Assembly (NCBI RefSeq): GCF_044324785.1
Contig: NZ_CP172127.1
Length of the DNA stretch: 64,000 nt
From: Escherichia coli
GTDB taxonomy: Bacteria > Pseudomonadota > Gammaproteobacteria > Enterobacterales > Enterobacteriaceae
Reading direction: 5' to 3' (one strand)
Shown: one piece after another, positions 62,639 through 63,000 of the stretch
Position numbering within the stretch: position 1 is the stretch's first letter
Layout: each line of letters starts with the position of its first letter
The notes under the pieces: generated by a model
What the model was told of the DNA's origin: nothing
Seen by the model: the letters and a program-made list of their open reading frames with translations, nothing else
Databases searched by the model: none
Made by a program: the position numbers and the translations under genes

Positions 62639-62666
62639 TTTACAGCGGCGCGTCATTTGATATGAT
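62639..62666 (+). promoter_or_regulatory. tyrT promoter (-35 TTTACA 62639..62644; -10 TATGAT 62661..62666) with GC-rich discriminator
   Basis: aacactttacagcggcgcgtcatttgatatgatgcgccccgcttcc; predicted start about 40 nt before the mature tRNA 5' end. Confidence 0.8.
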
Positions 62667-62715
62667 GCGCCCCGCTTCCCGATGAGGGAGCAGGCCAGTA
62701 AAAAGCATTACCCCG

Positions 62716-62800
62716 TGGTGGGGTTCCCGAGCGGCCAAAGGGAGCAGACTGTAAATCTGCCGTCATCGACTTCGAAGGTTCGAATCCTTCCCCCACCACC
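62716..62800 (+). tRNA. tyrT: tRNA-Tyr (anticodon GTA in ...gactGTAaatc...), with encoded CCA
   Basis: ggtggggttcccgagcggccaaagggagcagactgtaaatctgccgtcatcgacttcgaaggttcgaatccttcccccaccacca recognised as E. coli tRNA-Tyr; 85 nt with long variable arm. Confidence 0.95.
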
Positions 62801-63000
62801 ATCACTTTCAAAAGTCCGTGAACTCTCAAACGAATCCGCGATTAAATATTCTGCCCATGCGGGGAAGGATGGGAAGCTTCGACCAAGGTGCGACTCGAGC
62901 GCCAGCGAGAAAGCGTTGCCGCAGGCAACGACCCGAAGGGTGAAGCGCGCAGCGCTGAGTAATCCTTCCCCCACCACCATCACTTCCTGTAAATACTCAA
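62801..63000 (+). repeat. tRNA-distal repeat region (rtT-like): about one unit ending in a second copy of the tRNA 3' segment aatccttcccccaccacca (62971..62989)
   Basis: 3' end of the tRNA (62782..62800) recurs 189 nt downstream; partial third similarity (tcactt, attctgccca) after that. Confidence 0.6.

Follow-up and report, generated by a model that had tools for sequence, protein, structure and literature searches.

The tyrT operon of Escherichia coli lies between purU and narI, and the copy of it described here was read from a 64,000-nt stretch of contig NZ_CP172127.1 (assembly GCF_044324785.1), hereafter the window. On the upstream side stands purU (61715-62557, plus strand), a 280-aa open reading frame for formyltetrahydrofolate deformylase that is annotated as purU at the same position in homologous loci, and on the downstream side narI (63163-63840, minus strand), the gene for the nitrate reductase gamma subunit, which was recognized from the exact protein in E. 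coli contigs, from the Pfam family Nitrate_red_gam and from the naming of narI in homologous loci; the same synteny recurs in annotated genomes. The tyrT promoter (62639-62666, plus strand) is composed of the -35 hexamer TTTACA, a 16-nt spacer and the -10 hexamer TATGAT, followed by the G+C-rich stretch GCGCCCCGC. A promoter scan matched it to the sigma-70 consensus at 10 of 12 positions, with a TG ahead of the -10 hexamer, and its sequence shows no difference from the K-12 tyrT promoter, in agreement with a preliminary description of this DNA that had placed the tRNA gene behind that promoter. The 5' leader of the tRNA precursor (62674-62716, plus strand) would be about 43 nt long, its start near 62674 being placed from the position of the -10 hexamer, and it contains an A-to-G substitution at 62684. 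Over promoter and leader together, a single base differs from K-12 tyrT.

The only tRNA gene that ARAGORN detects in the whole window is a tRNA-Tyr(GTA) of 85 nt with an encoded CCA end, at 62717-62801 on the plus strand, which scores 53.4 bits against the Rfam tRNA model and which is regarded below as a fusion of tyrT and tyrV. It displays the traits of tRNA-Tyr1, that is, the GTA anticodon and the variable arm GTCATCGACTTC, and it is identical to all four copies present in K-12 and in strain NY1601. The region that follows purU yields a single tRNA-like match in the window, and the second tandem copy (tyrV), a trait of the K-12 reference, is absent. The preliminary description had likewise seen one complete tRNA-Tyr gene, but at 62716-62800, one base away from its actual position.

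The gene is followed by a flank of tyrV type (62802-62847, plus strand), with which a 178-nt unit begins, and then by a single RtT unit (62848-62979, plus strand), corresponding to the rtT RNA that is processed from the tyrT transcript. The RtT unit matches Rfam family RF00391 at 127.6 bits against a gathering score of 45, over model positions 1-130 of 130, and an RtT sRNA has been annotated by PGAP at the matching place in homologous loci. A 25-nt segment from the 3' end of the tRNA, AATCCTTCCCCCACCACCATCACTT, is present at 62783-62807, and a repeat search found a second, 100% identical copy at 62961-62985 on the plus strand; the distance from start to start, 178 nt, is the repeat period, and by our own arithmetic an exact 25-mer would be expected to recur by chance within 700 nt about 2e-10 times. 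A single 178-nt unit of this kind, with the tRNA 3' segment at its end, is present in the window. It had been reported earlier that this segment recurs once, 189 nt downstream at 62971-62989, and that a partial further unit precedes the REP element and narI. The single recurrence stands, but the interval given for it only overlaps the true second copy, and the period is 178 nt; the partial unit is present from 62986 to about 63038, but it is shared by all alleles. It is the constant tail that closes the array (62986-63038, plus strand; '0.14' of a unit) and contains ATTCTGCCCA at 63020, at a distance of 172 nt from the copy at 62848. Because the final repeat is succeeded by this tail in K-12 and all other alleles compared, the tail is not a product of truncation.

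Beyond the tail lies a palindromic element (63039-63097) built of an inverted repeat with arms at 63039-55 and 63067-83, which is presumably a REP element, as it resembles the REP consensus. Closer to narI, a G+C-rich hairpin (CCCCGC-CGAA-GCGGGG; 63120-63141, minus strand) followed by a T-run was read straight from the sequence, and it is probably the narGHJI terminator. The hairpin and its run of six T come directly after the narI stop codon and were missed by a terminator scan. Rfam matches on the minus strand at 63118-63239 (rsmX, istR and Trp_leader), all at less than half of the gathering score, were rejected as chance matches to this putative narI terminator hairpin. Within the RtT unit there is a short Tpr-like open reading frame (62869-62943, plus strand) of 24 codons, versus 29 in K-12, with an in-frame ATG upstream at 62857. 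Its early stop is due to a change of CGA to TGA that is common to all five aligned non-K-12 alleles, an observation that speaks against a conserved protein-coding role of tpr. The 5' arm of the RtT unit (62861-62882) has two possible pairing partners. Over 22 nt it shows 86% complementarity to the T-arm/acceptor 3' strand of the preceding tRNA (62772-62793), and over 10 nt (62861-70) it shows 100% complementarity to the tRNA-like segment at the 3' end of RtT itself (62962-71). The precursor could thus fold with this arm paired to one or the other.

The natural standard of comparison is the tyrT operon of K-12 (tyrT-tyrV-rtT/tpr), which is said to have been described by Egan and Landy in 1978 and by Rossi and colleagues in 1981, with a further classic account reportedly due to Bösl and Kersten in 1991. 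The two loci are alike in their position between purU and narI, in the promoter, in the 85-nt tRNA, in the 178-nt unit that carries the tRNA 3' end, and in the tail, the REP element and the adjoining narI. They differ in that K-12 has two tRNA genes, separated by a 209-nt spacer holding a divergent RtT, and three more RtT units, whereas the window has one tRNA gene and one RtT; across the locus, the two sequences are about 93% identical. In MG1655, the order from purU to narI is tRNA, RtT, tRNA and then three RtT units, much as the preliminary description had given it (tandem tyrT and tyrV followed by about three repeats), and the single-copy layout is hence no feature of the K-12 reference. 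The purU-narI interval measures 605 nt in the window and 1255 nt in K-12, and the 650 nt by which they differ are the sum of a tRNA-plus-spacer unit of 294 nt and two units of 178 nt. The region is indeed shortened relative to K-12, as had been claimed, but its immediate parent was evidently not K-12-like, and a repeat region with one RtT is common, as detailed below.

A comparison of the sequences that flank the tRNA gene is informative about which of the two tandem copies is represented. Of the 43 nt that precede the gene, 42 agree with those preceding copy 1 in K-12 and NY1601, as against 24 that agree with those preceding copy 2. On the other side, the 46 nt downstream of the gene are identical (46/46) to the sequence that follows copy 2 in NY1601 and match the corresponding K-12 sequence at 41 of 46 positions, versus 25 of 46 for either of the sequences that follow copy 1. 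A gene with the 5' flank of copy 1 and the 3' flank of copy 2 is the signature predicted for the loss of one repeat unit through misalignment of the copies. These flanks also speak to the possibility that the single copy is ancestral, the lineage having never been duplicated and the doublet having arisen elsewhere. Such a history is compatible with the fact that a minority of Enterobacterales have one gene at this place: in a sample of species representatives with at least 900 nt downstream of purU, 69 of which were among the matches listed, two tRNA-Tyr copies were found downstream of purU in 57, one in 11 (mostly Yersinia, Rahnella and Erwinia) and three in 1. However, all five Escherichia-labelled representatives among the matches listed (E. 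albertii, Escherichia sp. MOD1-EC7003, Escherichia sp. ESNIH1, E. coli SCPM-O-B-8794 and E. coli E69) carry two copies, as do most of the Enterobacteriaceae among those matches, so that one copy is the derived state; moreover, the 3' flank in the window is that of copy 2, and the same haplotype exists as a doublet (L154, see below), which contradicts an unduplicated ancestry. We regard an ancestral single copy as extremely improbable. Among the two-copy loci of the different species, the spacing of the genes falls into two classes, of about 107-127 nt and about 276-318 nt, and the one triplet, in Citrobacter sp. MGH106 (L125, 7136-7460), consists of three tandem tRNA-Tyr genes at 120-nt spacing.

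The substitution at 62684 provided a marker by which the parental haplotype could be traced. It is located in the loop of a small CUUCC/GGGAG hairpin of the tyrT precursor leader, and its G allele, sought as a 41-mer centred on the G, had no match in the 5,426 complete E. coli genomes, 5,337 of which matched the control with the A allele; nor did the leader with this private substitution have a match among GTDB species representatives. An exact-pattern scan of metagenome contigs, in contrast, located the G allele in two contigs from the human gut, designated L154 and L155. Further changes travel with 62684, at 62872, 63005, 63025 and 63062-63, making five window-private substitutions that occur together; those at 62872, 63005 and 63062-63 are in no other E. 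coli locus that was fetched, and the G at 63025 is also present in L022, L144 and L148. L154, a contig of 17.5 kb, has all five and is 99.9% identical to the window over 7.3 kb. Among complete E. coli genomes, by comparison, identity to the window reaches at most 99.3% over 22.6 kb and at most 99.1% over the locus. Exact matches to ten proteins of the window and to AcnA, RssA and NarI proved too widespread to single out a lineage, but they were labelled E. coli and not Shigella, and they yielded additional alleles of the locus. L154 has two tRNA-Tyr genes 119 nt apart, with the usual 34-nt spacer between them, TCTCAAGCATTACC, which follows the tRNA end CCACCA; the 119-nt unit is made up of this spacer and one 85-nt tRNA. 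Once one such unit is taken out of L154, the sequence equals window positions 62401-63400 with 0 mismatches in 1000 nt. L155 ends 26 nt past its tRNA, and since that tail belongs to the 34-nt spacer it is a doublet too. Judged by these alignments, the window corresponds to the doublet of its own lineage minus exactly one tRNA-plus-spacer unit. The same arrangement (two tRNAs, 34-nt spacer, one RtT) is found in NY1601, which matches the window at 634 of 642 positions when the 119-nt unit is removed; the allele of NY1601 and L154 differs from the window in this extra unit, and L154 is otherwise of identical haplotype.

A difference of exactly one unit between such close relatives is either the result of a very recent deletion between identical 85-nt copies or the result of assembly collapse, the two causes to which the preliminary description had attributed the single gene and which the hybrid flanks and the relationship with L154 now support. 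If the assembly had collapsed, the source strain would possess a doublet, and the assembler would have skipped the 119-nt loop of an 85-nt exact repeat. An exact repeat of 85 nt is longer than the k-mer sizes of many short-read assemblers. As would be predicted from a collapse, precisely one unit, and nothing else in 1000 nt, sets the window apart from L154, its closest relative, and the only two other sequences of the exact haplotype, L154 and L155, are both doublets. However, two low-coverage metagenome assemblies (1.9x and 1.5x) and 4,831 complete genomes did resolve a doublet, so that collapse is not the usual outcome at this locus, and unresolved repeats more often break contigs than lead to skipped loops, whereas the window is contiguous across the locus. 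A further argument comes from the frequency of the hybrid gene among complete E. coli genomes. A 234-nt query running from the leader through the tRNA into the copy-2 flank, with an E-value cut-off that admits only an unbroken alignment, found the hybrid single copy in 195 of 5,426 genomes (about 3.6%, a set that includes groups of similarly named and possibly related strains). The hybrid thus exists as a genuine, inherited form whose prior probability is several percent, and we consider assembly collapse an unlikely explanation, albeit one that deserves to be kept in mind.

The same collection of complete genomes puts the single gene into the perspective of the species. At least two copies, as recorded by a junction query comprising the spacer and the start of the second tRNA, are present in 4,831 of the 5,426 genomes (about 89%), and a promoter followed by one tRNA and then by an island in 390 (7.2%). 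Together with the hybrid, these classes cover 5,416 of the 5,426 genomes, and a single copy of either kind is found in 585 (about 10.8%). All seven single-copy loci that were inspected in detail indeed have one tRNA, six of them with one RtT and one with two. As the second copy varies within the species, tyrV defines the K-12 allele rather than the tyrT operon. Variation of plus or minus one tRNA copy among E. coli strains was reported by McDonald et al. (2015; PMC4539685), with Tyr not mentioned, and a preprint on the mobilome noted that coverage of the tyrT-rttR region is raised under stress, with no excision junctions given. A dozen or so tyrT-region matches (12-25 places, depending on the query) fall on records labelled as plasmids, which could be F-prime-like plasmids or mislabelled replicons.

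The range of alleles was drawn from loci that had been fetched for various reasons, and it is wide. Single-tRNA alleles have either one or two RtT units; doublets with the 34-nt spacer are followed by one, two, three or five RtT units, and doublets with the 209-nt spacer, which holds a divergent RtT, by two, three or four further ones. The five RtT 3' ends were seen in two E. coli assemblies, L147 and L152. The allele with two tRNAs and one RtT accounted for 10 of 40 evenly spaced rows of the genome search, so that a repeat region of one unit is commonplace. Other fetched alleles have an IS element or a gene island beside the tRNA. In L022, L144 and L148, the array tail is interrupted next to narI by an IS with a gene for a 399-aa DDE_Tnp_1 transposase; there is a single tRNA in L022 and in L148, and a pair in L144. 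The island-type allele, as in AVS0790 or O127:H6, resembles the window in having one tRNA-Tyr after the tyrT promoter, but it lacks the RtT array in AVS0790, the only genome of this type that was followed over the full length of the island, where a lipid-type cluster of seven genes and about 7 kb (L156, 17538-24419) takes up the space from the tRNA to narI instead. Its products are a KAS III-like protein, an NAD-dependent epimerase, an MBL-fold hydrolase, an F390 synthetase-related protein, a PAP2 phosphatase, a sterol desaturase and a fatty-acid desaturase. The island is also present in L010, L020 and L149, and in L020 it is located after two tRNAs.

The closest counterparts of the window in their organization are the natural single-copy alleles of strains JNEC-KY178, JNE25-003, STN0717-20, 2009C-3133 and 90-3040, which share with it the promoter, one tRNA, the flank of tyrV type, one RtT and the tail, in an interval that agrees to within 1 nt. 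They differ from it in sequence, with 95.9-98.5% identity across the locus, and none has the leader substitution of the window. When 745 nt of flanking sequence were compared among about 20 loci (ignoring L022, which is distorted by its IS insertion), single-copy alleles were found on at least five flank haplotypes, four of which have a two-copy neighbour at 0-4 differences per 745 nt. For L008 and the window, the nearest sampled neighbours are at 19-20 and 10 differences, respectively, and no close two-copy neighbour was in the sample. The occurrence of single copies on at least five flank haplotypes, with close two-copy neighbours, indicates that the second copy has been lost recurrently.

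One might also envisage that the locus contracted stepwise within its lineage from a K-12-like array of a tRNA, an RtT, a tRNA and three RtT units, since alleles of this kind exist and the gap in length between K-12 and the window is accounted for exactly as 294 + 2 x 178 nt. Yet K-12 is only some 93% identical to the window across the locus, and the doublet of the window's lineage already has the 34-nt spacer and one RtT, so that a single 119-nt event suffices and a series of contractions is unneeded. The likelihood of a stepwise history seems to us close to negligible.

The scenario that we favour, and consider probable, is that one 119-nt unit was genuinely lost from a doublet of the same haplotype, which generated a minimal natural tyrT allele. 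The parent would have been arranged as a tRNA, the 34-nt spacer, a second tRNA and an RtT. Misalignment of its two identical 85-nt tRNA copies would have removed exactly one 119-nt unit, possibly in an unequal exchange between sister chromosomes or through slippage during replication, RecA-dependent or not. These routes are suggested by what is generally known of the instability of tandem repeats and by early work on this very locus, in which a tandem tRNA-Tyr doublet reportedly segregated single-gene derivatives through unequal recombination (attributed to Russell and colleagues, 1970). The segregants of the su+III (supF) doublet reported in that work resemble the window in that one of two tandem identical tRNA-Tyr genes was lost, leaving copy-1 sequence upstream and copy-2 sequence downstream. 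They differ in that they were laboratory derivatives of K-12 and a phi80 transducing phage with the 209-nt spacer, whereas the window represents a natural non-K-12 haplotype whose parent has the 34-nt spacer. The crossover point cannot be mapped within the gene, as the two tRNA copies are identical. We infer that the deletion took place in the cell rather than in the assembler; what was observed directly is the anatomy of the locus, the hybrid nature of its flanks, the allele from which it derives and the repeated occurrence of the single copy in the population.

Following such a deletion, the surviving gene would have kept the promoter and leader of tyrT and acquired the 3' flank of tyrV, so that the operon would now be made up of the promoter, the leader, one tRNA-Tyr, one 178-nt RtT unit and the constant tail. 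Promoter, leader, tRNA and RtT are all undamaged, so that continued expression, as a single-tRNA unit, is to be expected. The dosage of tRNA-Tyr genes at the locus would be halved, and the cell would be left with the gene in the window and with tyrU, which is located elsewhere, outside the window.

A more speculative view is that the array acts as a copy-number switch operating at a high rate, and that the single copy was perhaps selected in some lineages rather than being a neutral loss. The range observed, 1-2 tRNA-Tyr genes and 0-5 RtT units in E. coli and three tRNA genes in one Citrobacter, prompts the thought, but we hold it to be highly unlikely. Were it true, the benefit might be a tuned supply of tRNA-Tyr or level of RtT, or a changed threshold for anti-phage systems that cleave tRNA-Tyr, and the leader substitution at 62684 could be compensatory in the processing of the precursor.

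With regard to its significance, a single-copy tyrT is an ordinary, recurrent and already known copy-number variant and not a new feature. Its biological weight is small, as it adds one more instance of a tandem tRNA duplicate lost by misalignment of the copies, at a locus where this is said to have been first shown in 1970. Its usefulness lies in a clean pair of parent and product alleles that are one 119-nt unit apart, and in a census of the states of tRNA-Tyr copy number at tyrT in complete E. coli genomes. The layout of K-12, with two tRNAs and four RtT units, is one of many alleles, and departures from it at this locus are hence not anomalies.
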